From Pecten maximus (lineage: Eukaryota), in the NCBI RefSeq assembly GCF_902652985.1, contig NC_047020.1, positions 30,008,001 to 30,072,000 on the forward strand: a DNA stretch of 64,000 nucleotides, read 5' to 3'. The translations under genes were made by a program, and so were the position numbers. Under the pieces are notes generated by a model that was not told the origin of the DNA, did not search any database, and was given only the letters and a program-made list of their open reading frames with translations. Each line of letters begins with the position of its first letter. Positions within the stretch are counted from its first letter, which is position 1. Below, in pieces: positions 2,714-61,700 of this stretch.

Positions 2714-4722
2714 AGACGTACATGCACGTTTACACATATTACCCTTGTACGAAGCGGAAAGTACTGTACCTCCCTCTACCATGGGATGGTAGGAACTATC
2801 TGCTTTGATTCATAAGTAGGGAATCTTTTGAAAAAAGCTGAACTTGAGATATTCACTTATAATTCTCCGAAACACAAGTATTTCACCTTCTAATGAAATT
2901 TGAAAAAACAGGCTTGAATATCCTGATAGAACTTTTTTTTATTATGACTTACTGTTATACTGTTATATATCATTTGCAACCTTCCGCGGTATCAGAAAAT
3001 CTTTATCTTCTCCAGCTGGCTGCAATTTAAACGTCATTTCCCCATGCAGGTTTTTTCTTAAATATTTTACTCGACGTCGCAGTAGCTTTGAAAGTGAAAT
3101 TTATATTGCACATGAATATATACAATACTAAATCTCGATATTTTATGGGAAAATAGTAGAAAATATTTGAGTAATGATTTGAATATGTATATATTTCCTA
3201 TTTTAGAGATATAATTATAAATTATTTATTTGGTTTTAATTTTTTCATGTTGAGTAATTGGTAGGTAGTGCTTTGGAGCCATGTCATTGTAGCTGGCTAT
3301 ACTCTGTGGTTATGTAACTTGTGTGTAGTGTTTATGATCATCTCTTTTAACTATTCCTCATACCTGTATTTCTACCAATTCTTTATCATGATCCCTACAC
3401 TCTGTTTATAGTTTTCTATCTTTGTTACCTTACTGTAATATATGTTTTCTGATGTTTGTAATAATTACACTTCCAAGCTAGTACATGTATATATGACTTT
3501 GAATTAAATTTCTTGTTATCTTGCACCTGGCATCTTGACATGATGTTTTACGTTATTGGATTATAACATAATTTTCATACCGATCACAATTCTTGTTTGA
3601 TTTCAGTATATACAGAACAAAGTCAGTATATTGCTTCATATAGCCATTTATTCATCGATGTAACTTGTTTTTGCAGTACAGTTATTGATGTGATTGGTAT
3701 CAACTAATTAATTATTATTATTTAGATATAACAGTTATACATGTATACATACAAATTGATCGACATGTTATTGGTGTTCATTCCGGTTCTTCACACAGTA
3801 CGACCCCTCGCTTCAATCTGGGCCAACAATCGTGATTAATATAAGATAACATACATTGTTTTGCAAGATTAAAACATTTATTAACGTATTAAAAATCGTA
3901 GTTAGCCCTTATAATAAACATATAGAGCGAAATGCAACCCAGTATCCAGTCCATTAATACACCCGAGTAATTGTCACTTTTGGAATTGACGCACATGTAC
4001 ATATATTTCATTCATAGCGTTGATAGACCAATTAAAGATCAGGGGAAAATAACGCATCTGAAACTTAAATATTGTTAAACTTTCCGAAAGTCGATTAAAA
4101 TTGAAGGAACTAATTATAGATATTTCCATAATAAATTCACCAACATAATTTATGCATTTCACAAATTAAGTTGTCAAAAATGCGAGAAAAAAATATTTTG
4201 AAAAGAAAACTTTCCAGATGCAATTAAAAGCAAGAAAAAACAACAATATACCATATCCCGATTTTATCGCCAGTATCTAATTTTTGCTATTATTTTAGAA
4301 AGAGTAACTTTCCCTGACACGGGAAAGGTCAGTCAACAGCCTGCTTAGATACTGCAAATACATAGATATTATAACTCGACCACTATACAAAGACCAGTAG
4401 AATGCCAAATCGCCAAATCACTGATTATTACAACAGATCGATGTTGAACGGTACACTGACCACTCAAGAAAAACTTTACTTTTGTGATTGATATCATGAT
4501 GAAAAAGTACAAGAATGTTTATAAAATCCGCTAGGGCCATCATCTTATTCCGAAATATATAGATATTTCTCTAGTATTACTCATTCCAAATAATACCTCA
4601 CTGATTAAGTCAATGATGGATCAGTTTTCCAGAGCATTGTATGGGTTTACGATCTCTATGTCATCTTTCTCGATGCCTTATTCTTTTCTGCTCTTAGATT
4701 AAGAAGTTATCATCGGAGCAAA

Positions 4723-6816
4723 TTATTTCACACCTGCTCCGGTTATATTCACTACTTGACAACCATTTTCTCTTCGGTGCATATTACAAAGGCATGTATT
4801 ACTGTCAGAGTTAGGAATATCATCGCATTTCATGTCGGAGTGACCTATCCAGAACATACCATTGCTGTTGTTGGTAAAGGTAGATACGTTTACATGAGCA
4901 AGGTGTAGATTATGTGTCTCACAGGTCTCCACTGCATCTATCCAGGTTTTATTTCCCTCCACGTAGATTTGGAAATTGTTGTAATTGTCTGAACAAATGT
5001 ATGGATGGTATTCATTGCACGCCCTTACCTCATATCTTGCATCTACTCCATAGGTATTCATTAGCCAACAGCCATCCTGTCTTTCTTCTGTATCACAAAG
5101 ACACGACAGGTTACACGAGGACGGCAAGTCACCGCGTTCGGAGCACTTGATCCAGAACATACCATTACTGCTGTGGTGAATTGTTGATATATTTTCACAG
5201 GCAAGGTGCAAATTACGTGATTCACAAGTCTTTACTGCATCTGCCCATGTCCTCTTTTCTTCCGCGTAGATTTGGAAATTATTCTTATTGTCATAACAGA
5301 TGAATGGATGGCTTTCATCACATGACCTTAACTGGTACTTCACTTCCAAGCCATTTTCATTGATTAGGTGACTTTCGCCTGTGCTTGTTTGTTTATCAAA
5401 AAAACATGTCATGTTATACGGGACAGGGGGGCCTCCATAGTCGCTGACGGAGCAGTTTGTCCAGAACATACCGTCATTGGCGAAGGAAATTGAAGATACA
5501 TTCATCTGAGCAAGATATAGATTACGTGATTCACAAGTCTTTACCGCATCTATCCATGTCATATTCTCCTCCGCGTAGATTTGGAAATTGTTGTTACTGT
5601 CAGAACAAATAAAAGGATGGTGTTCACTACAAGGCCTTATCTGGTATTCCAGATCGACCCCATATTTATTTATCATGCGACAACCGTTTTCTCTTGACTG
5701 TTTTACGCAAAGACCTGCTGAGTTGTACAAGGCCGGAAAGTCACTACTGCAGTCGCTGACGGAGAAGTTTGTCCAAAACATACCGTCATTGGCCAAGTGA
5801 ATTATGGATATATTCACACGCCCAATGTGTTGATTACGTGATTCACAAGTCTTTACCGCATCGGTCCATGTCTTATTCTCCTCCGCGTAGATTTGGAAAT
5901 TGTTGTTACTGTCAGAACAAATAAAAGGATGATATTCACCACAAGGCCTACATTGGTATTTCACATCCATTCCATTTTTATTAATCAGGCTACAGTCGTT
6001 TTCTCTCGTTTGCTCATCACAGAGGCATGTTATGTAGTTCGGGGCCGGAACATCACCACATTCGCTGACGGAGCAGTTTGTCCAGTACATACCGTCATTG
6101 GCGAAGGAAATTGAAGATACATTCATCTGAGCAAGATATAGATTACGTGATTCACAAGTCTTTACCGCATCTATCCATGTCCTATTCTCCTCCGCGTAGA
6201 TTTGGAAATTGTTGTTACTGTCAGAACAAATAAAAGGATGATATTCACCACAAGGCCTAAATTGGTATTTCACATCCATTCCATTTTTATTAATCAGGCT
6301 ACAGTCGTTTTCTCTCGTTTGCTCATCACAGAGGCATGTTATGTAGTTCGGGGCCGGAACATCACCACATTCGCTGACGGAGCAGTTTGTCCAGTACATA
6401 CCGTCATTGGCGAAGTCAATGGAAGCTATATTCATCTGAGCAAGATATAGATTACGTGATTCACAAGTCTTTACCGCATCTATCCATGTCTTATTCTCCT
6501 CCGCGTAGATTTGGAAATTGTTGTTACTGTCAGAACAAATAAAAGGATGATATTCATCACAAGATGTATGCTCGTATTTCAAATCCCTAACACTTTTGCG
6601 CATAAGAAGGCAGTCTTTTTTGTGCGCTTGCGTTTTACAAAGACAAGGAAATTGATGTGACAAATGGAAAACACCGCGTTTGTTTTCGGGATGACTGAAC
6701 TGTATATAATTTGAATTACTGTGTAGCTCCCATTTGTGGATTTTGCTATTTCCTGATACCAGCATAAACAGGGTAATCAACTGATAGAAGACAACACATA
6801 TTGAGAAGTTAATCAT
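4723..6816 (-). CDS. Secreted Cys-rich protein with tandem atypical C-type lectin-like domains (697 aa, single exon)
   Basis: 2.1-kb ORF from an ATG. Hydrophobic signal peptide ending VSG|N. Six copies of FQIY..E.xTW.DAV.TC..R.L.LA...G.[YF]W and six of C.E.HP[FY]IC at ~103-aa (309-bp) period, matching the CTLD W..A...C, WxG-like and C....FIC motifs. No TM segment. No EPN/QPD or WND motif. Confidence 0.85.
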   Translation of the reverse strand: MINFSICVVFYQLITLFMLVSGNSKIHKWELHSNSNYIQFSHPENKRGVFHLSHQFPCLCKTQAHKKDCLLMRKSVRDLKYEHTSCDEYHPFICSDSNNNFQIYAEENKTWIDAVKTCESRNLYLAQMNIASIDFANDGMYWTNCSVSECGDVPAPNYITCLCDEQTRENDCSLINKNGMDVKYQFRPCGEYHPFICSDSNNNFQIYAEENRTWIDAVKTCESRNLYLAQMNVSSISFANDGMYWTNCSVSECGDVPAPNYITCLCDEQTRENDCSLINKNGMDVKYQCRPCGEYHPFICSDSNNNFQIYAEENKTWTDAVKTCESRNQHIGRVNISIIHLANDGMFWTNFSVSDCSSDFPALYNSAGLCVKQSRENGCRMINKYGVDLEYQIRPCSEHHPFICSDSNNNFQIYAEENMTWIDAVKTCESRNLYLAQMNVSSISFANDGMFWTNCSVSDYGGPPVPYNMTCFFDKQTSTGESHLINENGLEVKYQLRSCDESHPFICYDNKNNFQIYAEEKRTWADAVKTCESRNLHLACENISTIHHSSNGMFWIKCSERGDLPSSCNLSCLCDTEERQDGCWLMNTYGVDARYEVRACNEYHPYICSDNYNNFQIYVEGNKTWIDAVETCETHNLHLAHVNVSTFTNNSNGMFWIGHSDMKCDDIPNSDSNTCLCNMHRRENGCQVVNITGAGVK

Positions 6817-7159
6817 CTTCCTTTAGTCAGTATCTTCACACGAACAATTCACATCATAGTCCAGGTGTCTATAAACTACCTGACAAGGCTTATCCGGACG
6901 CAATGTACGTGTGGCCATGTTCATAAAAAAACTTCCTCGTTTCGAGATAACCGAGATACCATGGAATGTTTATCATGCTTCAGATTAGAATCGCCCGTCT
7001 ACATGTATTTTGCTAAATCAGTTATTGAACTGCCACAGTGTAAAAGTTTTGATCAACAGCACTACCTCGATTTCATTGCTGGTTATTACACCAACATATT
7101 GTGCTTTATAAAAGTTTGATACGTGACATTTTACTGTGTAGATATGTCGATGCGACAGC

Positions 7160-7164
<5 letters not shown>

Positions 7165-7214
<50 letters not shown>
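7165..7214. repeat. (AG)n microsatellite
   Basis: About 25 perfect AG units. Confidence 0.95.
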
Positions 7215-7218
<4 letters not shown>

Positions 7219-9702
7219 AACCGACGAAACGCGGAGAGGAGTGAAACAAAAGGAAGATCTATAAGAAAACAGTTTCAAAGCAGAATACCTGATGTTCACT
7301 AAAGTAGTAAGCGTCTGTCTTATGCTTTAAGGTCAAGTAGAAGTCACACTCTTAAGATAAAGAAAGGGGTAGGCATAACGAAACCTCCCGACATTGACAC
7401 AAGAGTAAAACACAATCTCATAATTCCGTGGCCCAGGCTGTGATATAGGAAACAATATCCATAAACTGATATCACACCCCTAACTTACAGATTTTGCAGA
7501 CATTTTCGTTTGCAGTGATTATGAAAAAAGAGATGAAATAAATAAAAAGATAATACAATAATCATTATATACTGATTTCAAAAAGGTTTCCCCACTATAT
7601 AGAATGGCGATAACACCATACCAGTTTAGTATATGGGATACTATCTTTGATGCATATAAAACGACAATTGACGTTTTTGCTTAAAATTTCGGTTTTGTCT
7701 TTAGGTCGATGTTCTTTAAGAAAACACCATAGGAAACAAACAATCTTTAATGTCGTTCCAACAACAAAATAACAAAAGAACATCAACGCATTGTAACGTG
7801 TGTTTATTCAGTAAAAACATTGTTTTTATATCAAGTGCATACCTGACAGATTCATTTGGTGTTTACATTCAGCATAAGCTTAACGATCTGTACAATGTGA
7901 AAAATCCTACCATGATTACTCGACATATTATCCCGGTAACTTAGGCATGTAAACAATAGCGTGCAACACCAGAGATAAGGAATTGATCATTGTATGCTGC
8001 ACGTAGTTGAGAAAGTTAAAGAAAATAATTTTTATTTTATTTTATTTTTATGATTTGTGCTTAACTTATAGCACGCACTCTGTATCATAATAATTGATTT
8101 AGTAAGTGACAAATTAGATAATAGTACATTGTTTTCTTTCGTTTAGTATCATAATTGAGTCAAGTAGAATAAATATATATAATTTGATTATTTTTTCAAC
8201 GATAAGTTAGTTAAATATAAATGGGGATTCAGTAATTGATAAATGACATCTAGACATCAACATGAAGAATGTACATGTATAGCAATTGATTTTATCACAG
8301 TTCGTCATATATCAAATCATGTAAAACATTTAATTCAAAATATTATTTATATGTGTCTATAGTTATACAATATAATTCGAAGAACATATGTTATTACAGT
8401 TTTTCCACGTTCATTATCAATGTTGTAACAATTCATGGAAAGATAGATAAATATGCATCCTTGTTATTATAATCATCAATACATAAACGTGCTTGATATG
8501 ACTAATAATTAATAAGATTAGCTTGTTATACAATACAGCAAAATTGTCCTACAATATGATACTTATAGCAAAGACAATATGCCTTTATACAAATGTGAAG
8601 CATATTATATTTAAATAATAAATTCTGTAAATAATGATGGGGAAAAATAGTCGAACCTTATTTTTCAAAACTATCAAGCAAGATAATTCAGTTAGAAATA
8701 ATCAATTTTTCAAAACTCCAGAAATTACAGTACATCAGAGAGAGAAACAAAATATTTGATTAAAAAAAAAATCAATGGATGAAATATGAATAGCTCAATC
8801 ACAAATGCTATAAAAAGTAAAAACAAAACCGCAACATCTTCCATTTTCAAAGCAGGAAAAACGATTAGAAAAACGTTCAACTTTAAATCCAAACACACCG
8901 AGATACAAAGACACAACAAAAAATACAACATAATAAAAAGGGGCATTACCAAGAGCAAATAAAAAATGTGCTATTATGCTAGTGATATATAAAAATGGTA
9001 TTCAACGAGGCGACCATTTAAATTGATATTTGAAATACGGTTTATATTTAAACTACAAACCTTACAGTTTAGACATAGCATACGCTCATAATCTTGTGAG
9101 AACTTGAATCATTAACCCTATCATAATGAAGTCATAATATACACCAAGACAGTGTGCCATTTGGAAAGTGCTGCTTCACCTGGTAAGGTTTGCTTCCCAA
9201 ACCATACCAAAGGTAGTGATTAATGCGTAGCATGACATATGTAGCATAAATGTATCAAACATGTGCGTGTGTATACAACAACCATGCGGGCTTTGTTACA
9301 GAAATAGTAGTCAGTGAGCTAACTAGTCAGTGATAAAAATTAATATAGGAAATATTATCGTCATACTGTTACTTTATAATATTTTTCTGGTACAACATTG
9401 ATTTAAATAATCAAAAATCCTTTATTTTGATAGCATGCTACATAGAACGACAATGTTTGCCCGGAAGGAGGAGAGCAGCGTGTCCCAACAGAAACTAATA
9501 CAGGTATGAGTTTTATCATTATTTTATACCTAGCTATACCTTGTTTCTGCAAATTCAGGTATGGGGACGCTTAATTCTGTAAACTAGCGTAAAATGGTCT
9601 TCGCGCTGAAACAACATCAATAGAAAATTGAAATGTTAATATTGGATAATATAGCTTAAAAAATGTTTTGATAAAAACGATAATTTGTTTTTTTACTTAA
9701 TG

Positions 9703-11457
9703 TCACAACTGTTCATTCTGAGCAATCTCGTGAATAGCATTGTATGTGTCCGAATCAGGCCGAGAGGTTTCGTCTTTCTGATGGAGATGTCCATAGACCC
9801 CTTCAGTCAAAGCTCCCACGTGATCATACACGTCACTAGCCATTTGTTGTTTCTGATGTAGAACACCATATTCATCGGTAGAATCGTCCCGAATATAGAG
9901 TCGTGGTGCATGATCGTAAGTGTCATTTTCTGATTCACAATCTTTGCGAGCATTTTTGTTTTCAAAATGGTCGTATTTACTTTCATCATCAGACTCTGTC
10001 TCTGTTCTTGTATCCCCCTCATCTTGTCCTGAAACATTTAGTATTTGGGGCAGGTAAATTGGATTTTGATATTCGTCCTGTTGACGCAGTTTTCCTCTCA
10101 GTGATTTATCAATGTATCCCGCAAGACCTGACGTTTGTATGATGGTCTTTTGCTTCCCCCTGCTATTTCGTCTATACTTTACATACACTACCGTAGCTCC
10201 TATAATGAGCAGTAGTACCCCACCAGAAACAGCTCCCGCTATCAACGCAGTGTTATCTTTGTGATTCCGTTTTGCTTCCTTTGAACCGACAAGTTTTGGC
10301 CTTACTGTTGTGGTATTTGCAGTACTTGATTCATAAGTATTTAAAACACTTTCATTCACTCTTGATGTTATAAAAGTTCCGGTAGAGGTGATCCCTACAG
10401 TATGATATATGTCATCCGTTGTTGTAAATAATGTATCAGAATTGGTCGAATCTAAAGGCATTGTTGTAGACAATGTATCAGAATTGGTCGAATCTAAAGG
10501 CATTGTTGTAGACAATGTATCAGAATTGGTCGAATCTAAAGGCATTGTTGTAGACAATGTATCAGGATTGGTCGAATCTAAAGGCATTGTTGTAGACAAT
10601 GTATTCGAATTGGTCGAGTCTAAAGGCATTGTTGTAGACAATGTATTCGAATGGGTCGAATCTAAAGGCATTGTTGTAGACAATGTATTCGAATTGGTCG
10701 AATCTAAAGGCATTGTTGTAGAAGATGTATGGTCAGTTGTTGAAAATAGTATGGTCGTCTCTGTTGCTAATGTTGATTCTGTACTATTGGTTGTCGAATT
10801 AGAATTAATGTTTTGACTAGTCAAAGACGAGTCAGTTTTAGTAGAAAGGGTCGTAGACGGCGTTAATAATGCGGAACAAACAGAAGAGGTGGGAGGTCGG
10901 AATCCCTCGGAATCCATTTCACATTTGACATATGTAGATAAATTTGAATTCATTAAGGAGTTGTTAGAAGTTATTTGATATTGTGATACGTTTGTACCGT
11001 ATTCTGGTGTCCAACCGTAAAACGTCCCTGTCCAGAAAAAAACGTCACTATCAAAGTTAATAACAGATAGGTTAAAGTTTGTCGGAGTGATGTGTAAATT
11101 ACGTAATTCACAAGTCCTTACTGCATCTGTCCATGTGCTATTCTCCCCAGGGTAGATTTGGAAATTGTTGTGCTTGTCAAAACAAATGAATGGATGGTAT
11201 TCATTACAAGGCTCTATCACATCATGTCCGGTGAAATTCATTAGTTGACACCCGGCTTCTTCCCCCGTAGCTATGCGTTGTATTTCACAAAGACACGTTA
11301 AGTTGAATGATTGATCAAAATCACCACATTTGCTGTCGGGACAACGAAATTTCTTACAATTAAAATCATTATCTGGTTCCACCTCGCAGGTTTCCTGATT
11401 GCCTGATGCGACACAGAGCCAAAGACTCAAAAGGAAGATCCTTAAAAGTATGGACAT
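9703..11457 (-). CDS. Type-I membrane receptor: CTLD-like module, S/T-rich mucin stalk, TM helix, multi-tyrosine cytoplasmic tail (584 aa, single exon)
   Basis: The ORF track starts at a GTG (11502); the first ATG (11457) gives signal peptide MSILLRIFLLSLWLCVASG|N. CNEYHPFIC..NNFQIY..ENSTWTDAVRTCE..FFWTG is homologous to the 4723-6816 repeats. TM ALIAGAVSGGVLLLIIGATVVYV is followed by KYRR. The tail carries NPIY and several YxxPhi motifs. Confidence 0.87.
   Translation of the reverse strand: MSILLRIFLLSLWLCVASGNQETCEVEPDNDFNCKKFRCPDSKCGDFDQSFNLTCLCEIQRIATGEEAGCQLMNFTGHDVIEPCNEYHPFICFDKHNNFQIYPGENSTWTDAVRTCELRNLHITPTNFNLSVINFDSDVFFWTGTFYGWTPEYGTNVSQYQITSNNSLMNSNLSTYVKCEMDSEGFRPPTSSVCSALLTPSTTLSTKTDSSLTSQNINSNSTTNSTESTLATETTILFSTTDHTSSTTMPLDSTNSNTLSTTMPLDSTHSNTLSTTMPLDSTNSNTLSTTMPLDSTNPDTLSTTMPLDSTNSDTLSTTMPLDSTNSDTLSTTMPLDSTNSDTLFTTTDDIYHTVGITSTGTFITSRVNESVLNTYESSTANTTTVRPKLVGSKEAKRNHKDNTALIAGAVSGGVLLLIIGATVVYVKYRRNSRGKQKTIIQTSGLAGYIDKSLRGKLRQQDEYQNPIYLPQILNVSGQDEGDTRTETESDDESKYDHFENKNARKDCESENDTYDHAPRLYIRDDSTDEYGVLHQKQQMASDVYDHVGALTEGVYGHLHQKDETSRPDSDTYNAIHEIAQNEQL
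10427..10722 (-). repeat. Coding 42-bp minisatellite (7 x STTMPLDSTNSDTL) forming the mucin stalk
   Basis: tctaaaggcattgttgtaga recurs every 42 bp from 10451 to 10703. Confidence 0.95.
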
Positions 11458-12675
11458 TCTCCTTCCTCCGTATGCAACTCCCACCGTACTTGATTGTTCC
11501 ACTGGTTATGACTGGCTAGCCAAGGTATTACTGATAAAATGTGTTGTCGATATGCTTCCTCGTTCCTGATAATCGATATCGTTATCTAAAAGGTTGGATC
11601 GTTAGATCGTACACCAGAGATAAGCATTGTAATGTGAATTATCAAAATCCCTAAGTGAGAATCTGTGTTTAGAAATGTTAAAAAAAAAAAAAAAAAAAAG
11701 ACACAACACACCGAAGGCATACTCTAAGATTCAAACTTAATCAAGCAATGCATTGATAATGGATATGTTGATATAATGACGTCATGAGAAATTATATTCC
11801 GGATTTGAAACTTAAATCTATTCCACGTACTACCCCATAGCGAACCGAAGACTATAGAATAAATCGTCCAGGAGAAAACAATAAATAATGGTGCGGGATA
11901 TTTGGTTTTGTGATTATTGTTTATGTTATAACGTTCAGATATGCTAACTGATAACTGAGGGCATATTTCAGACTTTTAATCAAACTATGATAATACACTA
12001 TTTCGCTCTTAGATATTATAAAGTGCATTACTTAGTCTCCCCTGTTACTAAACTTAGCCTTGTATTTCACAGGGGTGGCCTTTATGGACATACATGCCCT
12101 CCCTACATGTACCTTATTTCAGGTTGTCATTTACACCTTTTGGTGTGCCCTTTACCTGTTTGATTACACATTTCATTTTAAAGTAGATGAACCCCACAGT
12201 TGACTTATCGTGTCCCTAACTGTTCCGTTGTTTCATGCAGTAAAGCCAGACATGAAAAAATCAACACCATAGCTTCCGCAATTGAGCCTGTAATTGTTCG
12301 TTAACTCTGGATGTTTGGGAGAGAAATTGTATTTTTAACTTTTCTGATGTTGGGCAAAGTTTTGATAGTTGGTTATGTCTTGTTTGACATCGTCACTTGA
12401 ACTTTTAGATAAAGTAGCTGTATACCATGTATGATGAAGTAATACATCCGGCCCTTGTTTCTAGTGTTTTGACACATACTGCTAGAATGTTATCGTTACA
12501 CAATGTTTGTTACAAGGCAAAATTTCTATCAACGGTTTTTACCAGCGGTATTACAAATATTAGCGTCATCTGCGTCCCATTTTATAAGGAAAGGGTAGCA
12601 TGTGGTTTTCTCAAGAATAAGTTCCTGGTTCCTGTTCACAAATGAAAATAATTTGTCAGTCACTAAGAAAATAAA

Positions 12676-12720: not shown

Positions 12721-15565
12721 ACATCTTTGTCACATGCGATAATACATTTTCATATTTTTGTAAACAATTAGTGTTTTATATTGTTTATTAAATAATTTAC
12801 TCACAAAGTGTGTTAAAGACATCTTGTTTCAAGCTGTCTGATTACAAGTAAAATGCCATTAACATGTCTATTACTTATCCCTGGTTATATTCCAAGTTCT
12901 TCCAAAAATTTTAAAAAAAAATCCTTAGTAAAACTTAAATCCTCAAACTCAGTCAAGAAGGCATTGTCAAGCGTAAGAAACTTTTTTATATTTTCAGATT
13001 CTAACCTACTCAATTAAGGAACTACAAAACTTTCTAAAACACATCTTCTAAACATCATCTATATTATTATTTAAGGTATAAATCCTTTAAAGAAATAACA
13101 TTATGTATTTAAGGGTTTCATTCTGATTTGTAACAATCTCCCAATTTTTCTTTTCTGACTTCTGTTGATCGATACTATGTTCATGCAGCTGAGAATGTTT
13201 ATATGTACATACAGTGTTATTGTCTTTATTTCGATTTACAATTAACAATTCAGAATGGTATGGATGAAGATCATTACTGTATTGTAATATAACCAGAGAT
13301 ATGATTCTGAGAAACGCACCCATCAAATCGTGGGAATGGAGCTTAACACTAAATATTTGAGATAGATCTAATCTGAATGCACATTATTGAAGTTTAACCC
13401 CAGTGAACATTTATACTAATAGCAGTATGGGATCGCTATCAATGAATGTAAAGTAAATCTGCAAAATGTCTTAGCCGAATTAATGACGAACAGATAATTG
13501 GTAAAACGTTATGCCCCGCCCACATTGCTTAATATTTTACATGCTCGATTGATTAAATTTTATTATGTTTTGAAGCTATTATATTTTGGTGGGTTTTTTT
13601 TTGTGTTTACGTTCGTATTCCTATATTGACCATACATTTATTAAAATTATTTGATATTGTGTCCTTTTTATTGTTTCTATATTATTTGTTTCTTCAAGTC
13701 TTTCTATGTTTTTTTTTTTGCTTTTGAATATAAAGTTTTATCAAGTTTAACTTCATCCTTTATCGGTTTATCTTCATTTAATTTCTAAATTTCAAATCTG
13801 CTCAGTTTCGTCAAGAATACACAAGTAAGGTATGCAATTAACATCTGCAATGTAACTTGAACCAACCCTACACGCGCCTTGGTACGTTCCCAGGTGATAA
13901 ACAGAAAATCATGAGGTTTTTTTTATTAAATGCCTATACGATTCACCACATTCATGGTGAAGAATGAAGAAAGTTTATGAAGGAATACTTTATGGTACTA
14001 TATCAAGTCGTTCTTGTTCGTTTTGGTGTTTTCGTTGTTATCTCCCTAATTCTTATTGGAGATGGAGGCTTAACCTGGATTTTACATATTTGCATATTTT
14101 GTCATAATTTGGATATTTTGATATGTATCACATAATATTTCTTTAATACTTCTTTCAATCGAAACCTATTAAGTACATCTCATTTTTGATAAGACTCTCC
14201 ATATCATAAAAACGTTCATGATTACCGTTTTCACTTCAAAGAATCAAAACAATTAATGTATCCATCGTTTAATACGAGGACACATTGAGTAAGGCAGGCA
14301 GGTGATATTAAATCTATTTCGAAATCATCCTATTTAGAATTCTACCGTTACGAACTCCTTGCCAATTAATTCGTTCATTCGGATGCACTTCGGTTGAAAC
14401 GAAGATTGTCGGTTAGACAGGTGAAATTTGTGACCCCTCTCGATTCGCTATATTAACATGGTATCGCCATGCGACCGGCTGGGTGGGCATATTACTTAAA
14501 TTGATAACTTTTACGCCAGTAATGTCTTTAACCAGCGTGTGTTTATCTAGTTGAGTTACATGGTCTCCCAGCTGGTCGCCCTGCAGGGACATAGTAAGAA
14601 AGAAACAAGCACCTGGAGAAAAGGAAGTTGTTCGACTGGCAATGCTTTATATATCTTTGACTTCAAACCTGTGATGTTAGTACAACACAAACAGGTCCTA
14701 TACAAAATTGTATGCCCTGTTGAATATTCGGTATTTACTTGGAAAGTTGGGTCCTGTTATCTCAGGCGATTGAAATATATATATGACGATTAAGCAATTA
14801 AAAGGGGAAAAAATTGTCAAAGGTTTGTTAACTCGTGGCAATATCAGTCATGAAATATTTTTCGATATTCTATACAAATAATATGATATCTTACCTAATT
14901 TATCTGTTTAAGTGTCGATTAAATGTCGATTTATAACTATTTGTTCCTGTACTGTTATCTAATGAAGCCGATATATACTTTCCTAAATTATATAACAGGT
15001 AGCATTTATGCATTTTTGGGGATTGAAGGAAATACAAACTCGTCTAAATTAGGTATCTATATATCAATGTGTTTTCAATCTTGACGGTATTAAGCTCGGA
15101 TATAATCAATCATGTTTAGGTTTGTCTTATATACTCGCTGTAACCCATATATACATGTATATTTCTACTGACCTGTGATAATCTTTCTAAATCAGGCCTC
15201 TAGATATATAACTGTGATGTAATACTCTACCTCTTAAAAAACCATGCCTCTAACACTGTAGTACATATTATAATGAATCTTGTGTAGATTTGTCTGATAT
15301 ATAAGTAGTATTTGAGACAGAACCATGGCATACCCGCTGTAATGTGGGAATGATGGTAAAATTGATATATAAGATTGTATTGTCTCAGAACTTCTCGAGA
15401 ATATAGACTCATAAAGCAACATATGAAATCGGAATAGTGTGATATGTAGTGTTGTTGAATGACCTGCCAAAAAAATCGTTTTCTTCCAAAGCGCTTACCA
15501 CATCAATTTGTAACTAAGTATATGACTTTGTCAGAATGAATTACTGTTTGAGTTCGTACCCCGGG

Positions 15566-15630
15566 CAACTTCGCTAGCCAGGGGTGTTCAATACGATACT
15601 CTCCTTTTACACCCTCGGCTAGCGAAGTTG
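15566..15630. repeat. Short hairpin / mini-MITE-like inverted repeat
   Basis: caacttcgctagccaggggtgt (15566-15587) is the near-perfect reverse complement of acaccctcggctagcgaagttg (15609-15630). Confidence 0.7.
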
Positions 15631-17154
15631 AAACCCGTGTTAATATTAAATTTGTCCTAGAGTTATGGCGCTTTGCATATAGGAACTTATAATCACCTAT
15701 TTTTAGAACTACCGCTTGCCACGTCATTTTGTAACTTAGGATTTCGCTTTGTCATAATGGATAATAGTTTTCATTTGAACCCCGTGACAATATTCCACAC
15801 ACACACTATTGTAATGTAATCACAATACCATCCACAAATAACCCCAGACGTTCAACTCAATTTATCAACCAACTAGCAACAGAAAGCATTATGATGCTTT
15901 CCATATAGTGACCCTGACTTATTTTCAAATTAAGTGGGCGCAGACGACACATCCAATTCTGTGGAATTCTAGTTATACAAAAAGGTTAACCTAATGCGGT
16001 TAATGAGATTGTGAGTTATGAGCACGAGCTGTGATTTACAAGGAAAATGTATAATTTCAGTTTCATATTTTGTCGGGTAGGGTGATTATAACGAATCGTG
16101 ATATACGTTTAAGATGACGAATAATTCATCTTTACTATTAATAGCAAGAGTAGATATCGGATTGAATTATAGAAAATATTCTACATGAAGTTATTAAATA
16201 CTTTTTTCCAGGCGAGTAGATAAAGCATTGGGGTTCTCTACCATTCACCATTTTTGTATTTCCAATCATCAGTAAATATGTTGAACTTAGCTCGGAATAA
16301 AACAGTTCATCCATTCTGAAAAAAATCCCACTAATTCCGAAATCTACAATACTAAACCTAGTTCATACCATATTTTCTTCCGATAGCTCGCACTTTGAAC
16401 ATCATCTAGCATCCCTATCCCACCTACGGCCATACCCACGCACATTCACTTGCGAAAAATACCACTTTGACCAACCTCTAAATCAAACTGTGCCCTTAGT
16501 TGGCTGACATATCAGAAACGTTACCAAAGACCTAACACCGATATGTATATTAACGATTTGTTATAGTTTGTCACCAAATGAAAAAAAGATAATTGGCCAT
16601 ATTGATCGGATATACCTTGTAGGACTTGAAATCAAGGCACAACTGAGTATTTAAAGTTCCCAATGATTAATTTTCTATTCATAGCTACCTCCCTGCATCA
16701 CCTCCCTATGGCTCATTATCACCATGATCTCATTTGAAAATCTTTTAGAAGGAAAGGACGCTTACTCTACAATAACACATGGTCTTATTTTCGCTGACTT
16801 TTTCAGGAGCATCTGCATTTTGGTTTATATTTTGCCTCCGTTGATAGATTTGGTGTTGGTATTATGGTTTGTTTTTATGTTGGTATTAGTTGTTGTTTCT
16901 TTACCCGCCATACCGCTTGTATTGTCAACCCTATTCATATCACCTTCCCAGGCCTACTTTGTCAACAGTTTACATAACCTTTCTCACCGACTGTCTCACC
17001 AATTCAAATTATTAAAGTTATGAGGTACCATTTAGATTGACCTTTATCCTTCCTATCTCACCGTACTCTTAATCTTGTATATGTCTGGTGTAGAAATATA
17101 TATAAAATCATTAATACATGTCTGGGGTACAGCAATAGGGCTTTCTACCACTAT

Positions 17155-18573
17155 TTTGAACCCTCACAATATTCCTTAGTATTGTAAAAATGCTGCCGCG
17201 GACACGTGGTTAATTGTTCACCAATGAAGGAATTGCCGGAATCCGCAGATTTTCCTGTTTATAACATCCCACTCGAGGTGCACACGAATTCTAACCAAGT
17301 TCCTAACCGTCTAACTACTCAGGAAATGACGACAGAGTTGATTTTGAACCGTGACCATAGTCCGTAGTATTGTAATAATGCTGTAGCGGACACGTGATTA
17401 ATTGTTCACCAATGAAAGGATTGCCGGAATAAGCAGATTTTCCTGTTTATCACATCCCATTCAATGTGCACACGAATTTTGACCAAGATCCAAGCCTTCT
17501 AATTACTCAAGAAATGACAACAGAAATGTACTTTGAACCGTCACCATATTCCGTAGTATTGTAACAGTGCTGGCGCGGACAGGTGGTTGATTGTTTACCA
17601 ATGAAAGGATTGCCAAAATAAGCAGATTTTCCTGTTTATCACATCCCACTCGAGATGCACACGAAGTCTGACCAAGATCCGAACCTTCCAACTGTTAGAG
17701 AAATGACGACAGAACTGTATCTTGAACCATAGTATTGTCACCATATTCCTTAGCATTGTAACAGTGCTGCCGCGGACACCTGGTTTATCGTTCATCAATG
17801 AAAGGATTGCCGGAATAAGCAGATTTTTTTGTTCATCACATCCCACTCGAAATGCACACAAATTCTGACCCAAACCTTCCAACTACTCAAGAAATGACGA
17901 CAGAACTGTTATTTGAACCGTCACCATATGTTGTACTATTGTAACAGTGCTGCCGCGGACACGTGGTTAATTGCTCACTAATCAACGGATTGCCGGAATA
18001 AGTAGATTTTCCTGTTTATCACATCCCAGTCGAGGAACACAGGAAGTCTGACCAAGATCCGAACCTTCCAACTACGTACTTAAGAAATGACGACAGAACT
18101 GTTTTTTGAACCGTCAAAATATTCGTACTATTGTAACAATGCTGTCGCGGGCACGTGGTTAATTGTTCATCAATGAAAGGATCGTAGGAATAAGCAGATT
18201 TTCCTGTTTATCACATCCCACTCAAGGTTCACACGAATTCTGACCAAGATCAGAATCTTTTAACTACTCAAGAAATGACGACAGAACTGTATTTTGAACT
18301 TCAACATGTTCCGTAGTATTGTAACAATGCTGCCGCGGACACGTGATTGATTGTTCACTAATGAAAGGATTGCCGGAATAAGCAGATTTTCCTGTTTATC
18401 ACATCCCACTCGAGATGCACACACATTCTGACAAAGATCCAAAGCCTTCTAACTACTTCAGAAATGACGACAGAACTGTATTTTGAACCGTCACCATATT
18501 CCGTAATAATGTAACAATGCTGTCGCGGATACGCGGTTAATTGTTCACTAATGAAAGGATTGCCGGAATAAGC
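17155..18573. repeat. Satellite-like tandem array, ~190-bp unit, ~7.5 diverged copies
   Basis: cagattttcctgtttatcacatcccac recurs at about 17246, 17434, 17623, 17820, 18004, 18194 and 18383. Confidence 0.9.
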
Positions 18574-39589: not shown

Positions 39590-41978
39590 TGTGATTTTGG
39601 GTACTGAGAGAACAGTTCGAGAGTTGGTGGAATTGTTAGGGTGTTTGAGTATTGAGAGGACTGTTCGAGTGTTGAGAGAATTGTTAGGTTGTTTGGGTAT
39701 TGAGTGGACTGTTCGAGCGTTGATGGAATGGTTAGGGTGTTTGGGTACGAAGAGGATTGTTCGAGTGTTGAGGAACCTGTAAGTGTGTTTGGGTATTAAG
39801 TGCACAGTTAAAATGTTGAGGGAGCTGTTAGGGTGTTTGGGTATTGAGAGGCTGTTCGAATATTGAGGGAACTGTTAGGATGTTTGGGTATTGCGAGGAC
39901 TGTTCGAGTATTGATGGACTTGTTAGGGTGTTTGGGTATTGCGAGGACTGTTCGAGTGTTTGATGGAATTGTTAGGGTGTTTTGGGTATTGCGAGGACTG
40001 TTCGAGTATTGATGGAATTGTTAGGGTGTTTGGGTATTGTGAGGACTGTTCGAGTGTTTGATGGAATTGGTAGGGTGTTTTGGGTATTGCGAGGACTGTT
40101 CGAGTGTTTGATGGAATTGTTAGGGTGTTTTGGGTATTGTGAGGACTGTTCGAGTATTGATGGAATTGTTTGGGTGTTTGGGTATTGCGAGGACTGTTCG
40201 AGTATTGATGGAATTGTTTGGGTGTTTTGGGTATTGCGAGGACTGTTCGAGTATTGATGGAATTGTTTGGGTGTTTGGGTATTGTGAGGACTGTTCGAGT
40301 ATTGATGGAATTGTTAGGGTGTTTGGGTATTGAGAGGCTGTTCGAGTGTTGATGGAATTGTTTGGGTGTTTGGGTATTGCGAGGACTGTTCGAGTATTGA
40401 TGGAATTGTTTGGGTGTTTGGGTATTGCGAGGACTGTTCGAGTGTTGATGGAATTGTTAAGGTGTTTGGGTATTGAGAGGCTGTTCGAGTATTGATGGAA
40501 TTGTTTGGGTGTTTGGGTATTGTGAGGACTGTTCGAGTGTTGATGGAATTGTTTGGGTGTTTGGGTATCGTGAGGACTGTTCGAGTGTTGATGGAATTGT
40601 TTGGGTGTTTGGGTATTGAGAGGCTGTTCGAGTATTGATGGAATTGTTAAGGTGTTTGGGTATTGAGAGGCTGTTCGAGTGTGGAGGGAATTGTTAGGGT
40701 GTTTGGGTATTGCGAGGACTGTTCGAGTATTGATGGAATTTTTTGGGTGTTTGGGTATTGCGAGGACTGTTCGAGTATTGATGGAATTGTTAGGGGTTCT
40801 GGGTATTGCGAGGACTGTTCGAGTATTGATGGAATTGTTAAGGTGTTTGGGTATTGCGAGGATTGTTCGAGAGTTGATGGAATTGTTTGGGTGTTTGGGT
40901 ATTGAGAGGCTGTTCGAGTGTTGATGGAATTGTTAGGGTGTTTGGGTATTGAGAGGCTGTTCGAGTGTTGATGGAATTGTTTGGGTGTTTGGGTATTGCG
41001 AGGACTGTTCGAGTATTGATGGAATTGTTTGGGTGTTTGGGTATTGTGAGGACTGTTCGAGTGTTGATGGAATTGTTTGGGTGTTTGGGTATTGCGAGGA
41101 CTGTTCGAGTGTTGATGGAATTGTTAAGGTGTTTGGGTATTGCGAGGACTGTTCGAGTGTTGATGGAATTGTTAAGGTGTTTGGGTATTGAGAGGCTGTT
41201 CGAGTATTGATGGAATTGTTTGGGTGTTTGGGTATTGTGAGGACTGTTCGAGTGTTGATGGAATTGTTTGGGTGTTTGGGTATCGTGAGGACTGTTCGAG
41301 TGTTGATGGAATTGTTTGGGTGTTTGGGTATTGAGAGGCTGTTCGAGTATTGATGGAATTGTTAAGGTGTTTGGGTATTGAGAGGCTGTTCGAGTGTGGA
41401 GGGAATTGTTAGGGTGTTTGGGTATTGCGAGGACTGTTCGAGTATTGATGGAATTTTTTGGGTGTTTGGGTATTGCGAGGACTGTTCGAGTATTGATGGA
41501 ATTGTTAGGGGTTCTGGGTATTGCGAGGACTGTTCGAGTATTGATGGAATTGTTAAGGTGTTTGGGTATTGCGAGGATTGTTCGAGAGTTGATGGAATTG
41601 TTTGGGTGTTTGGGTATTGAGAGGCTGTTCGAGTGTTGATGGAATTGTTAGGGTGTTTGGGTATTGAGAGGCTGTTCGAGTGTTGATGGAATTGTTTGGG
41701 TGTTTGGGTATTGAGAGGCTGTTCGAGTGTTGATGGAATTGTTTGGGTGTTTTGGTATTGCGAGGACTGTTCGAGTATTGATGGAATTGTTTGGGTGTTT
41801 GGGTATTGTGAGGACTGTTCGAGTGTTGATGGAATTGTTTGGGTGTTTGGGTATTGAGAGGCTGTTCGAGTGTTGATGGAATTGTTTGGGTGTTTGGGTA
41901 TTGCGAGGACTGTTCTAGTGTTGATGGAATTGTTTGGGTGTTTGGGTATTAAGTGCACAGTTTGAATGTTGAGGGAAT
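39590..41978. repeat. 47-48-bp GT-rich minisatellite (~50 copies), left part
   Basis: Unit gggtattgcgaggactgttcgagtattgatggaattgttagggtgttt; contains a 715-bp higher-order duplication. Confidence 0.95.
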
Positions 41979-43247: not shown

Positions 43248-45693
43248 TTTATTTATTCTTTATAACATGTTGAGCTTAAAAGCTCGTCTTACACATGGTC
43301 AAGATAAGTAATAAAATATACAATAATTACAACGTATAAAAGAATAATACTATAACACATGATATAAAATACAACATAATTTTGGAGCTGTCATTAAATG
43401 TAAAGGATAAAAGTACAACTACGGCAAGATTACAGATTACTCCATAAAAAAGTTCTTTGCTGCTTTCTTAAAAGATGAAAGTGTTGAACAGTTTCCTCAC
43501 ATTACTTGGTAAAAGATTCCATGTATGAGCTCCTTGATATTTAAAAGACTTTTTGAAAGTATTTGTATGGTGAGATGGTAAGTAAAAAACATTTGTGGTT
43601 GAGAATCTGGTAGACCTACCATGGACATCATATATGCTAGTAAAACAATTTAAGTTTTGTGGAGCTAGATCATTAAGTATCTTGTACATAAAAAACAGAC
43701 TGACTATATAAAATCCTTTTCCTAAAAGGCAGTCATCTTAGTAATTTAAACATGTCATTAGTAGGAGTTAAAAAGTCACAATTTAAAATAATTCTGGCTG
43801 CTCTCTTCTGAAGACGCTCCAACTTAACAATATTCTTTTTTGAACTGTTGCCCCAGACAGTAGCACAGTAGTCAATATGAGGATTGATAAAACAGTTAAA
43901 AAACGTAATACAGGAAGTCTGGCTTAAAAATGGTCTTATCTTTTTCATTTGAAAACTGGTAATCCCAGGACATACAATCATCAACTGATACTCCTAATAG
44001 CTTTCCGTGTTTTACATTTTCTATATTTACATTGTTGATGACAACAGATAGTTCACCTTTTAATTTACATTTCCTCTGTGAGGTAGACACAAGCATAGCT
44101 TTGGTTTTGTCAGTATTAATACACATTTTGTTAACATCACACCATGATGAAACTGACTTGGCATCCTCATTGAGGTTTTTATTTACATCATCAATAGATT
44201 TCGCATGGGTCTGAGCTGCAGTGTCATCTGCATACATATACATATCACTCTGATTAGTAACAACAGGGAGATCGTTTACATACAAAATAAACAACAAAGG
44301 CCCCAATATTGATCCCTGAGGGACTCCAACTGAAAGGGGGAGAGAATCACTAAGTGTATTCTTAAAATTTAGAACTTGAAATCTCCCGCTCAAATAACTA
44401 TTTAAAAAATGCACTGTTCTGGATGAACATCCAAACAATTCAAGTTTTGAAAGCAAAATTTGATGATTAACAAGATCAAAGGCCTTACGGAAATCCAAAA
44501 ATAGAACACCAGTTAGCTTTCCTTTATCTATTGCATCAAACCAAGAATTTGTAATGTTGGTAAGTGCAGACTGACATGAATGTTTAGGTCTGAAACCAGA
44601 CTGGCTATCTGTAATCAAATTGTTTATAGTCAAAAACTTATAAAAATGAACCTGTATGTGTTTTTCTAAACACTTGGATAAAACAGGTAATATCGAGATT
44701 GGTCTGTAATTAGACAACAATTCTTTTTTACCCTTTTTAAAAAGAGGGCATACTTTTGCATAATTCCAGTTTTGAGGGAAACAACTTGTATCAATACACA
44801 CATTAAGCAGTTTACAGACAACTGGAGCAATAGCCTTAGCACAGTATTTCAGAAATTTTGCGCTAATATTATCAAGCCCAGTGGCTTTGTTGACATCTAA
44901 GTTTAATAAAAACTTTTCAGTAAAAGGAATGTCAACTTTTGGTATGTCAAAAACGTTACCTTCCAATTTGCTTTCTGTGAATAATTTAAGCTTTAAAAAC
45001 AAACCTGAAGATTCATTATCACCAACTTCTCTTACATATTGGCTTGCTATATTGGTAAAATACTTGTTAAAACAATTTCCTATTTCATTTTCATCAGTAA
45101 TATCATTGCCATCTAGATCTTTTATAAAACCTGGCACACTAGAAGACTTTTTTGGACATAACTTCTTATAATTATTCCAGTAGGTTTTGGAATCTTTGCA
45201 CTGATCTAAAACGGAAGTGAAACATTTGATTTTGCAGATCTTATCATGGCTGACACTTTATTTCTCCACTTACGATAAAGATCAAGATGGCCCTCATGTT
45301 TATGTTTGTTTCTAATTTGAATACTTACAGTAATATCATCATGCCACCATTCTGGAATTTTCCGATAACGTACTCTTTTTTCTTTAAGAGGTGCATGTTT
45401 ATCTACAACATCTTTAAACAAAGATTGAAAAGTTTGTAGCATGTCATTTACATCATCAAAAACATCTTAACATGACCATGGTACATTTTCAATATCAGAG
45501 ATGAAAGTATCTGTATTAAATTTTTTCATATATCTATAATGAATAGAGTATGTGGCGTTTTCTACTTTCTCAGTGTTACATCTTACAGCACATACTGGAA
45601 AATGGTCGGAACTTCAGTATGTAATATTTTTTCTGACTTGATAGTCCATATATGGTCAATACTAGTTCCACTATCACTCTGAACTCTTGTAGG
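43248..45693 (-). mobile_element. 5'-truncated, frameshifted CR1/L2-group LINE (Crack/Daphne-like), APE-RT ORF2
   Basis: RT motifs NYRPISILPVLSK, QSGFRPKHS, FLDFRKAFDLV, GVPQGSILGPLLF, YADD (43896-45137). Endonuclease tail PTRV..TSIDHIW (~45640-45693). Post-RT IDYCATVWGN..LQKRAARII and SFKYQGAHTWN.LP lie in other frames. AATAAATAAATA at the 3' end. Confidence 0.93.
43896..45137 (-). pseudogene. Reverse transcriptase domain of the LINE (largest open fragment, 413 aa)
   Basis: Contains PQG and YADD. Bounded by frameshifts to the fragments at 45206-45442, 43733-43984 and 43468-43689. Confidence 0.9.
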
Positions 45694-45694
45694 G

Positions 45695-46155
45695 TTAGGG
45701 TGTTTGGGTATTAAGTGCACAGTTTGAATGTTGAGGGAATTGTTAGGATGTTTGGGTACTGATAGGACAGTTCGAGTGTTCATGGAACTGTTAGGGTGTT
45801 TGTGTATTGAGTGCACAGTTTGAATGTTGGGGGACCTGTTAGGGTGTTTGGGTATTGTGTGGACTGACCGAATACTGAGGGAACTGTTAGGGTGTTTGGG
45901 TATTGTGTGGACTGACCGAATGCTGAGGGAACTGTTAGGGTGTTTGGGTACTGAGAGGCTGTTCGAATGTTGAGGGACCTGTTAGGGTGTTTGGGTACTG
46001 AGAGGCTGTTCGAATGTTGAGGGAACTGTTAGGGTGTTTGGGTATTGTGTGGACTGTTCGATTGTTGAGGGAACTGTTAGGGTGTTTGGGTATTGTGTGG
46101 ACTGTTCGATTGTTGAGGGAACTGTTAGAGTATTCGGGTATTGAGTGGTCTGTTT
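45695..46155. repeat. Right part of the 48-bp minisatellite (~10 diverged copies)
   Basis: Same unit family (tgttagggtgtttgggtattg..ggactgttcga..gttgagggaac) as 39590-41978. Confidence 0.9.
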
Positions 46156-51307: not shown

Positions 51308-52752
51308 AGCAGGTTAACTGATAGACATGATGTAACCAGGTTAACTGATAGACATGATGTAACCAGGTTAGTTGATAGACATGATGTAACCAGGTTAACT
51401 GATAGACATGATGTAACCAGGTTAACTGATAGACATGATGTAACCAGGTTAACTGATAGACATGATGTAACCAGGTTAACTGATAGACATGATGTAACCA
51501 GGTTAGTTGATAGACATGATGTAACCAGGTTAAGTGATATACATGATGTAACCAGGTTAACTGATAGACATGATGTAACCAGGTTAACTGATAGACATGA
51601 TGTAACCAGGTTAGCTGATAGACATGTTGTAACCAGGTTAGCTGATAGACATGTTGTAACCAGGTTAACTGATAGACATGATGTAACCAGGTTAGTTGAT
51701 AAACATGTTGTAAGCAGGTTAACTGATAGACATGGTGTAACCAGGTTAGCTGATAAACATGTTGTAAGCAGGTTAACTGATAGACATGTTGTAACCAGGT
51801 TAGTTGATAAACATGATGTAAGCAGGTTAACTGATAGACATGTTGTAACCAGGTTAACTGATAGACATGATGTAACCAGGTTAGCTGATAGACATGTTGT
51901 AACCAGGTTAGCTGATAGACATGTTGTTTCCAGGTTAACTGATAGACATGTTGTAACCAGGTTAACTGATAGACATGTTGTAACCAGGTTAGCTGATAGA
52001 CATGTTGTTTCCAGGTTAACTGATAGACATGTTGTAACCAGGTTAACTGATAGACATGATGTAACCAGGTTAGCTGATAGACATGATGTAACCAGGTTAG
52101 TTGATAAACATGTTGTAACCAGGTTAGCTGATAGACATGTTCTAACCAGGTTAACTGATAGACATGTTGTAATCAGGTTAGCTGATAGACATGATGTAAC
52201 CAGGTAAGCTGATAGACATGTTGTAACCAGGTTAACTGATAGACATGATGTAACCAGATTAGTTGATAGACATGATGTAACCAGGTTAGTTGATAGACAT
52301 GTTGTAACCAGGTTAACTGATAGACATGATGTAACCAGGTTAGCTGATAGACATGATGTAACCAGGTTAACTGATAGACATGTTCTAACCAGGTTAACTG
52401 ATAGACATGTTGTAATCAGGTAAGCTGATAGACATGTTGTAATCAGGTTAGCTGATAGACATGATGTAACCAGGTTAACTGATAGACATGTTGTAACCAG
52501 GTTAACTGATAGACATGTTGTAACCAGATTAGTTGATAGACATGATGTAACCAGGTTAGCTGATAGACATGTTGTAACCAGGTTAACTGATAGACATGTT
52601 GTAACCAGGTTAGTTGATAGACATGTTGTAACCAGATTAGTTGATAGACATGATGTAACCAGGTTAGCTGATAGACATGTTGTAATCAGGTTAGCTGATA
52701 GACATGTTTTAACCAGGTTAACTGATAGACATGTTTTAACCAGGTTAGCTGA
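51308..52752. repeat. 27-bp minisatellite, ~53 copies
   Basis: Unit aggttaactgatagacatgatgtaacc, with substitution variants only. Confidence 0.97.
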
Positions 52753-61164: not shown

Positions 61165-61700
61165 AATGTAGAATGTGTCTGGTAGAATATGTCTAGTCTG
61201 TTACAAGGTGTCTGGTCTGTGGTAGAATGTGTCTGGTCTGTGGTAGAATGTGTCTGGTCTGTGGTAGAATGTGTCTGGTCTGTGGTAGAATGTGTCTGGT
61301 CTGTGGTAGGATGTGTCTGGTCTGTGGTAGAATGTGTCTGGTCTGTGGTAGAATGTGTCTGGTCTGTGGTAGAATGTGTCTGGTCTGTGGTAGAATGTGT
61401 CTGGTCTGTGGTAGAATATGTCTAGTCTGTTACAAGGTGTCTGGGTTTTACAAGTGTCTGTTCTGTGGGTAGGATGTCTCCTGGTCTGTGGTAGAAGTGC
61501 CTGGTCTGTGGTAGAATGTGTCTGGTCTGTGGTAGAATGTTCTGTCTTTGGGTAGAATGTGTCTGGTCTGTGGTAGGATGTGTCTGGTCTGTGGTAGAAT
61601 GTGCCTGGTCTGTGGTAGAATGTGTCTGGTCTGTGGTAGAATGTGTCTGGTCTGTGGTAGGATGTGTCTGGTATGTTAGGATGTGCCTGGTCTGTGGTAG
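61165..61700. repeat. 21-bp minisatellite gtgtctggtctgtggtagaat
   Basis: More than 20 copies, grading into the 19-bp array. Confidence 0.93.

Follow-up and report, generated by a model that had tools for sequence, protein, structure and literature searches.

Among the folds that animals use for recognition, the C-type lectin-like domain (CTLD) is one of the most common. In oysters, CgCLec-HTM and CgCLec-TM1 signal through Syk (available part of PMC13027682), the transmembrane (TM) segment of CgCLec-HTM is C-terminal (available parts of PMC12842671 and PMC13027682), and among bivalve lectins SPL-1/2 are motif-less and Ca2+-independent (available part of PMC12842671). The combination of C-type lectin (CTL) and WSC domains is named bivalve-specific in the available part of PMC10140915, which there makes no mention of the clade described below. 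We analyzed 64,000 nucleotides of Pecten maximus DNA (NC_047020.1, here C6:30008001-30072000; hereafter the window), in which 2 minus-strand genes share one module: gene B encodes a membrane receptor and gene A an anchorless, multi-unit protein. On sequence evidence, A and B are offshoots of a large receptor family, and their shared domain is probably a natural circular permutation of a CTLD, with its 2 halves swapped. This likely permutation, missed by the initial annotation, is the more unusual feature.

CTLD ancestry, which had been proposed from the sequence alone, was recovered by profile comparison. Units of A matched fish tandem CTLDs at a profile probability of 97.0 (E 9e-11; 97.3 in a second comparison), with the comparison set drawn from a search with the same profile and therefore not fully independent. 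PDB matches were CLEC4F and NKG2A (E 5e-4 to 6e-4). Neither A nor B matched Pfam Lectin_C at its curated cut-off, and the relative P0004 scored 19.2 bits (E 0.002), under the cut-off of 22.6; Pfam matches of A and B such as FAD_binding_8 were unrelated and were dismissed as repeat noise. Lectin_C led in the ESM Atlas at 0.82-0.83, under the reliable range and taken as a lead only. A word-index search with B's ectodomain gave no match, and neither did Foldseek, including a second look, which is evidence in neither direction. The motifs EPN/QPD and WND are absent at the CTLD positions of A and B, as had been observed earlier, with the WND site reading YQF, VIE, or YEV.

We identified the shared module in 5 receptor-type genes of the assembly, B, C, D1 and D2 (C6 1.82 Mb), and E (C6 2.68 Mb), and compared these and their outside relatives (B-types) with full-length family members, which run from a signal peptide through a CTLD split into 2 halves by WSC to a second CTLD (CTLD2), a serine/threonine (S/T) stalk, a TM, and a Tyr-Asp-His tail. 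The B/A profile matched the full-length family (probability 97.4, E 9e-12, 152 columns) from the end of WSC onward. The extra CxC and further Cys, correctly seen at first with their origin overlooked, are thus a WSC remnant, and the shared motif, first read as one CTLD module, is indeed CTLD-derived and straddles the boundary of 2 CTLDs rather than being one CTLD in order. The complete WSC (PF01822, ~90 aa, 8 Cys) is present in relatives, and only its last 5 to 6 Cys are left in A and B; the family profile also matched Kremen WSC (E 0.027) and NKG2A (E 0.013).

In the B-types, both CTLD halves are present in reverse order, and their normal-order partners are missing. The core Cys and central Trp of B occur in permuted order (C70, C84, C92, C116, and W142), the spacing from PFIC to the helix Cys is 24 in 9/9 B-types, and the terminal C-x7-C found in 15/15 full-length members occurs in 0/9 B-types, 3 of which have no candidate left for the usual partner Cys. 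Identity among 7 B-types was 0.45 in the WSC remnant, 0.47 in the C-half of the first CTLD (C-half1), 0.55 in the N-half of CTLD2, and 0.29 in the C-half of CTLD2 (C-half2), with 9 full-length members flat at 0.20 over the same segments. AlphaFold with 30 alignment rows gave a pLDDT of 72-89 over model residues 51-130 and 38-59 beyond; A modelled from its single sequence reached 36 and was not used for fold search. In order-keeping structural alignment, the stretch matched to CTLDs lay wholly at residue 76 or later in 49 of 50 rows, 4 tandem-CTLD chains among them. The halves modelled as a split complex scored 0.51 against 0.01 for the best control, which is weak support, with a partner pLDDT of at least 56 and runs agreeing on at least 66% of contacts. 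Further, the repeat in A runs exactly from the WSC remnant to FW (104 aa in B), and A starts and finishes as whole permuted units.

These features could also be read as an ordinary, degenerate CTLD in normal order, in which B's CTLD2 uses in folding the second half that follows it, leaving the upstream half as an appendage, and A becomes 5 chimeric domains between 2 broken ends. Four observations pull this way and weigh against a permutation: A units read in the normal order align with fish CTLDs over their full length, 6 of 9 B-types keep a late Cys, ordinary tandem CTLDs (P0009 and P0016) can likewise have short linkers between their domains, and the model places the C-half2 strand 156-162 near the core. 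The same arrangement leaves B's C92 and C179 unpaired in several species, the late Cys is absent in D1, D2, and E, P0006 is without much of C-half2, and both conservation and model confidence favour C-half1, so that we regard normal order as rather unlikely. Under the preferred permutation, the ancestor would have carried a first CTLD with a WSC insert followed by CTLD2, and an N-terminal deletion would have taken the first half of CTLD1 and most of WSC. The second half of CTLD1 (the C70-C84 hairpin and PFIC strand) would then have folded with the first half of CTLD2, which would supply the FQIY strand, C116 helix, and FW strand, with a predicted C92-C116 bond, and CTLD2's own second half would have decayed. 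Gene A would have followed when the permuted unit of 103 aa was duplicated internally and the stalk and TM were lost.

With a full-length array member as query, at least 50 genomic matches were obtained, 42 of them on C6; this count is a lower bound, and some of its rows are 2 pieces of one broken gene. Among 15 full-length members, Pfam identified WSC in 1 and Lectin_C in 2 only, such that a family of dozens of receptor genes would largely escape Pfam-based surveys of bivalve lectins; a Tegillarca relative lies above both cut-offs. A profile search of 1.84 billion representatives returned 25 matches, with 4 strong ones being single-module B-types (1 from Mizuhopecten yessoensis) and most of the rest fish tandem CTLDs. 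None of the 4 close matches was a multi-unit relative, nor was either of the 2 matches (383-1220 aa) to a search with A, both being single-module receptors. D and E are located in arrays of longer intronless genes. The full-length arrays at C6 1.73-1.83 Mb (+) and 2.53-2.76 Mb (-) have opposite orientation and near-identical members, one end of E matching D1 and its other end D2, and may represent an inverted segmental duplication or a retained haplotype.

The adjacent, same-strand, intronless open reading frames (ORFs) first reported are present (Table 1), each beginning with a hydrophobic stretch ending SG|N; signal peptides and TM segments were called by hydropathy. As first described, A is anchorless, with no hydrophobic stretch after residue ~24, and B has an S/T stalk, TM, and Tyr-rich tail (hydropathy and repeat scan). 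Copy numbers had been put at ~6.5 and ~1.5. A has 6 [HY]P[FY]IC motifs (spacing 101-104 aa; a 309-bp tandem repeat in DNA) and a decayed seventh junction, and B has a single module. The likeness of A units to B is not due to chance, since identity is ~50% with E down to 1e-25.

Read data comprised contigs from 4 RNA runs of one study, 1 probable RNA run of another study, and 3 DNA runs. Both A and B are transcribed, in line with the expectation that had been set out for them: RNA contigs cover the 2 genes in 5/5 RNA-type runs, and their ragged 5' ends (Table 1) fit single-exon genes. Positions 6890-7787, between A and B, are without RNA contig cover. A single transcript for A and B was rejected on this gap, a weak hint only, and on the separate AATAAA of each gene. 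DNA carry-over in the RNA runs was also discarded, as single-copy positions 12727-15230 and a satellite (DNA depth >60,000) are empty in runs X7 and X9. An assembly error at A's stop was ruled out by independent runs showing the same junction. Splicing of A to a downstream TM exon found no joint in 8 runs, with a minor splice form possible because contigs drop rare forms, and no B-like TM or tail was found between A and gene C.

Values of dN/dS were 0.18-0.67 in 15/15 pairs of A units. Among the best-supported polymorphism rows (40 of 158 and 40 of 279), 12 of 18 coding changes in A and 2 of 10 in B were synonymous, with no stop in either; against a neutral expectation of 73-81% non-synonymous changes (~76-81% for A), A departs (P 1e-5 to 2e-4; mis-mapping among its repeats is possible) and B does not. 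The 8 non-synonymous changes in B include 3 in the ectodomain (D41Y, N97S, and P125Q), and the pattern may reflect relaxed or diversifying selection, with too few changes to tell.

These data bear on whether A has a function at present. It might be a transcribed by-product of birth-and-death turnover, that is, a truncated receptor duplicate: its ORF ends where a 34-nt deletion creates a stop with the decayed seventh junction immediately behind, units 4-5 have lost some Cys (unit 5 the first core Cys), and truncation recurs in the family, with short, broken tails in C and D1 and several full-length paralogs carrying internal stops or lacking a TM. The 2.1-kb ORF is, however, open in all contigs shown, its listed polymorphisms are mostly synonymous, and the gene has a poly(A) signal to itself and a 1.1-kb 3' untranslated region in which nothing of a stalk or TM is left, all of which make a functionless by-product very improbable. 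Two 391-aa ORFs elsewhere (L052 and L053; C6 2.69 and 2.59 Mb) encode a signal peptide and a complete full-length ectodomain and end before the TM, and are other candidate soluble forms.

The initial annotation had proposed an undescribed, dedicated system in which A is a soluble opsonin or decoy co-regulated with the signalling receptor B and sharing its ligand. The 2 genes are adjacent, on one strand, and detected in the same RNA-type runs, their cores are ~83% DNA-identical, and A is under purifying selection. Further, the 10-mer AACGAGGAAG, which contains what we take to be an ETS-like GGAA core, lies at window positions 6932-6941 and 11555-11564 (-), 125 and 107 nt upstream of the A and B ATGs, and nowhere else in the window; it was spotted after the fact, and the exact 10-mer is missing from C, D1, D2, and E. 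Set against this, the DNA of A is no closer to B than to C, D, and E (79-85%). In a quick tree search omitting P0029 and P0030 as near-duplicates, A units and B-types formed one branch within the family (SH-aLRT 91), which did not resolve A as B's sister. The database searches gave no multi-unit relative, 3 B-types elsewhere on C6 have no A-type neighbour, and genes that adjoin each other in a tandem cluster inherit common expression. A dedicated pair is thus unlikely, and neither the proposed system nor a conserved pairing is supported within a family of this size, whose close outside relatives are single-module and in which TM-less or tail-less truncations recur. A is not necessarily a partner of B, the evidence for a dedicated pair being adjacency, shared presence in RNA runs, and one upstream 10-mer.

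We lean, with modest confidence, towards B as a Ca2+-independent receptor with a permuted CTLD and A as a likely secreted derivative with six copies of that domain. The ligand of B is likely to be a protein or a glycan bound without Ca2+. Its stalk is a 14-aa S/T repeat (42 bp x 7.4), and its 155-aa tail has 10 Tyr; set beside the ITAM consensus YxxL/I-x6-8-YxxL/I and the acidic hemITAM, the tail reads YDHV-x7-YGHL (V in first position) and DEYGVL, and a relaxed ITAM pattern arose in 1-3.5% of 2000 shuffles of the tail. NPIY was identified in 5/5 B-types with full tails and the ITAM-like YDHV-x7-YGHL in 4/5. NPxY is a docking site for PTB domains and YDxV one for Nck-type SH2 domains. Ligand would cluster B, displayed on its mucin stalk, and phosphorylated Tyr motifs would recruit Syk-type kinases and SH2/PTB adaptors; A, as an agglutinin or opsonin, would rely on avidity to hold repetitive ligand of the same class. 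A role in adhesion, mucus particle sorting, shell matrix, or gamete recognition would suit non-Ca2+ CTLDs with heavy N-glycosylation (19 sequons in A), and bivalve CTLs take part in mucosal particle selection (available part of PMC10140915). Large tandem birth-and-death arrays with ITAM-like tails resemble immune receptor clusters. The Tyr-motif CTL receptors of oyster use Syk, in the available part of PMC13027682. A non-immune role is, in our view, rather unlikely. The ITAM-like tails make the family a candidate diversified immune receptor system in farmed shellfish.

The locus is a cluster of at least 3 genes, with gene C 4 kb beyond the window edge encoding a B-type ectodomain, an S/T stalk of ~390 aa, a TM, and a tail of only 11 aa, the rest of which persists downstream as a remnant out of frame. 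At L018:1762-2135 (-), beside an unread stretch and ~14 kb to the left of gene C, a Tyr-Asp-His tail similar to L077's probably marks a fourth receptor gene. An open Tc1-like transposase ORF (L017:269-1333, -) and a retroelement with reverse transcriptase (L018:6250-9517, -) adjoin the cluster. Within the window, no long ORF besides A and B and no Rfam match was found. Positions 1324-2540 and 15569-15976 are a dispersed high-copy repeat, deep in DNA and RNA runs alike; satellite or minisatellite arrays occupy 17152-18573, 24511-31010, 39596-41978, 45694-46154, 51310-52752, and 61190-64000, with one 48-bp unit present twice among them, and a reverse transcriptase fragment lies at 43896-44243.

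Table 1. Features of genes A, B, and C (window coordinates unless stated; X numbers denote read runs)
Feature	Position	Strand	Remarks
Gene A transcript	3633..6885 approx.	-	Single exon per contigs; RNA contig ends 3633 (X3, X9) and 6865-6889 (X3, X6, X7, X9); DNA runs extend beyond
Gene A coding sequence	4723..6816	-	697 aa; probably secreted, with six units of the permuted CTLD
Gene A predicted signal peptide, aa 1-22	6751..6816	-	Hydropathy; paralogs share SG|N end
Gene A array of six C-half+N-half cores, aa 69-657	4846..6612	-	103-aa period
Gene A C-terminal leftover	4726..4845	-	WSC remnant and seventh unit's first strand
Gene A stop from 34-nt deletion, then out-of-frame seventh-junction remnant	4694..4725	-	Same junction unspliced in RNA and DNA contigs
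Gene A AATAAA	3647..3652	-	RNA contig end 14 nt past
Gene B transcript	7788..11520 approx.	-	Single exon per contigs; RNA contigs 7788-7828 to 11476-11523 in X3, X6, X7, X9
Gene B coding sequence	9703..11457	-	584 aa type I membrane protein
Gene B WSC remnant, aa 24-57	11287..11388	-	Six Cys including CxC; aligns where WSC ends in full-length relatives
Gene B predicted permuted CTLD core, aa 70-142	11032..11250	-	beta3-beta4-beta5 then beta1-alpha1-beta2
Gene B decaying C-half of CTLD2, aa 143-197	10867..11031	-	
Gene B S/T-rich stalk	10243..10866	-	42-bp repeat at 10419-10730
Gene B transmembrane helix, aa ~406-428	10174..10242	-	Hydropathy
Gene B cytoplasmic tail	9706..10173	-	NPxY 10054-10065; three YDH motifs; ITAM-like Y544xxV-x7-Y555xxL 9784-9828
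Gene B AATAAA	7803..7808	-	X3 contig end 15 nt past
Gene C	C6:30001961-30003853 (L017:3961-5853)	-	4 kb left of window; third cluster member

A literature search by title and start of abstract, with most subscription journals outside its scope, found no description of a permuted CTLD or of an intronless scallop lectin-receptor cluster, and C-type is unmentioned in the available part of the main text of PMC13552848, a 2026 survey of permutations. The likely permutation, with its stages in one genome, merits a specialist's test; conservation of the soluble-plus-receptor system as a unit is unsupported. A verified case in which the parent, the intermediate, and the re-duplicated form occur together would offer a clean test of permutation by duplication.

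Compared with the CTLD superfamily (PF00059; CLEC4F, langerin, NKG2A, and CLEC12A), A and B share the strand-helix-strand N-half with TW..A...C and central Trp and the C-half C-x13-17-C-x7-C, in sequence and structure matches, whereas the halves of their conserved core are reversed, the second helix is reduced, a WSC remnant replaces the long loop, EPN/QPD/WND are lacking, and scores fall under the Pfam cut-off. The bivalve CTLD+WSC proteins (Tegillarca KAJ8318989.1, Mizuhopecten LOC110458986, and Pecten LOC117329946) have an ectodomain homologous to B's, an S/T stalk, one TM, a Tyr-Asp-His tail, and intronless tandem arrays; B-types differ in lacking the first half of CTLD1, most of WSC, and the last Cys of CTLD2, and A also lacks stalk, TM, and tail. 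Uncharacterised B-type relatives outside the assembly have B's architecture, NPIY, and the ITAM-like motif, with a C-half2 shorter still and no multi-unit soluble form found among them. The nearest functional analogues of B appear to be oyster CgCLec-HTM and CgCLec-TM1 (hemITAM-Syk-ERK), likened by function only, sequences not compared: in the available accounts these share a CTL-type ectodomain, TM, and Tyr motif, and they have a carbohydrate recognition domain with one hemITAM and bind lipopolysaccharide and bacteria, whereas B stands on a mucin stalk, has 10 Tyr in its tail, and carries a domain that is motif-less and likely permuted. The secreted scallop lectins CfLec-3, CfLec-4, and AiCTL-9 are, like A, soluble tandem CTLDs and act as opsonins (available part of PMC12842671); unlike A, they have normal-order recognition domains with Ca2+-site motifs, and A's units appear to be young internal duplicates of a receptor module. 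A close evolutionary parallel in kind is saposin/swaposin, in which a permutant is cut from a tandem repeat and intermediates truncated at one end are predicted (available part of PMC3320104); the A/B case concerns another fold, and its putative parent, permutant, and re-amplified permutant all occur in one genome.

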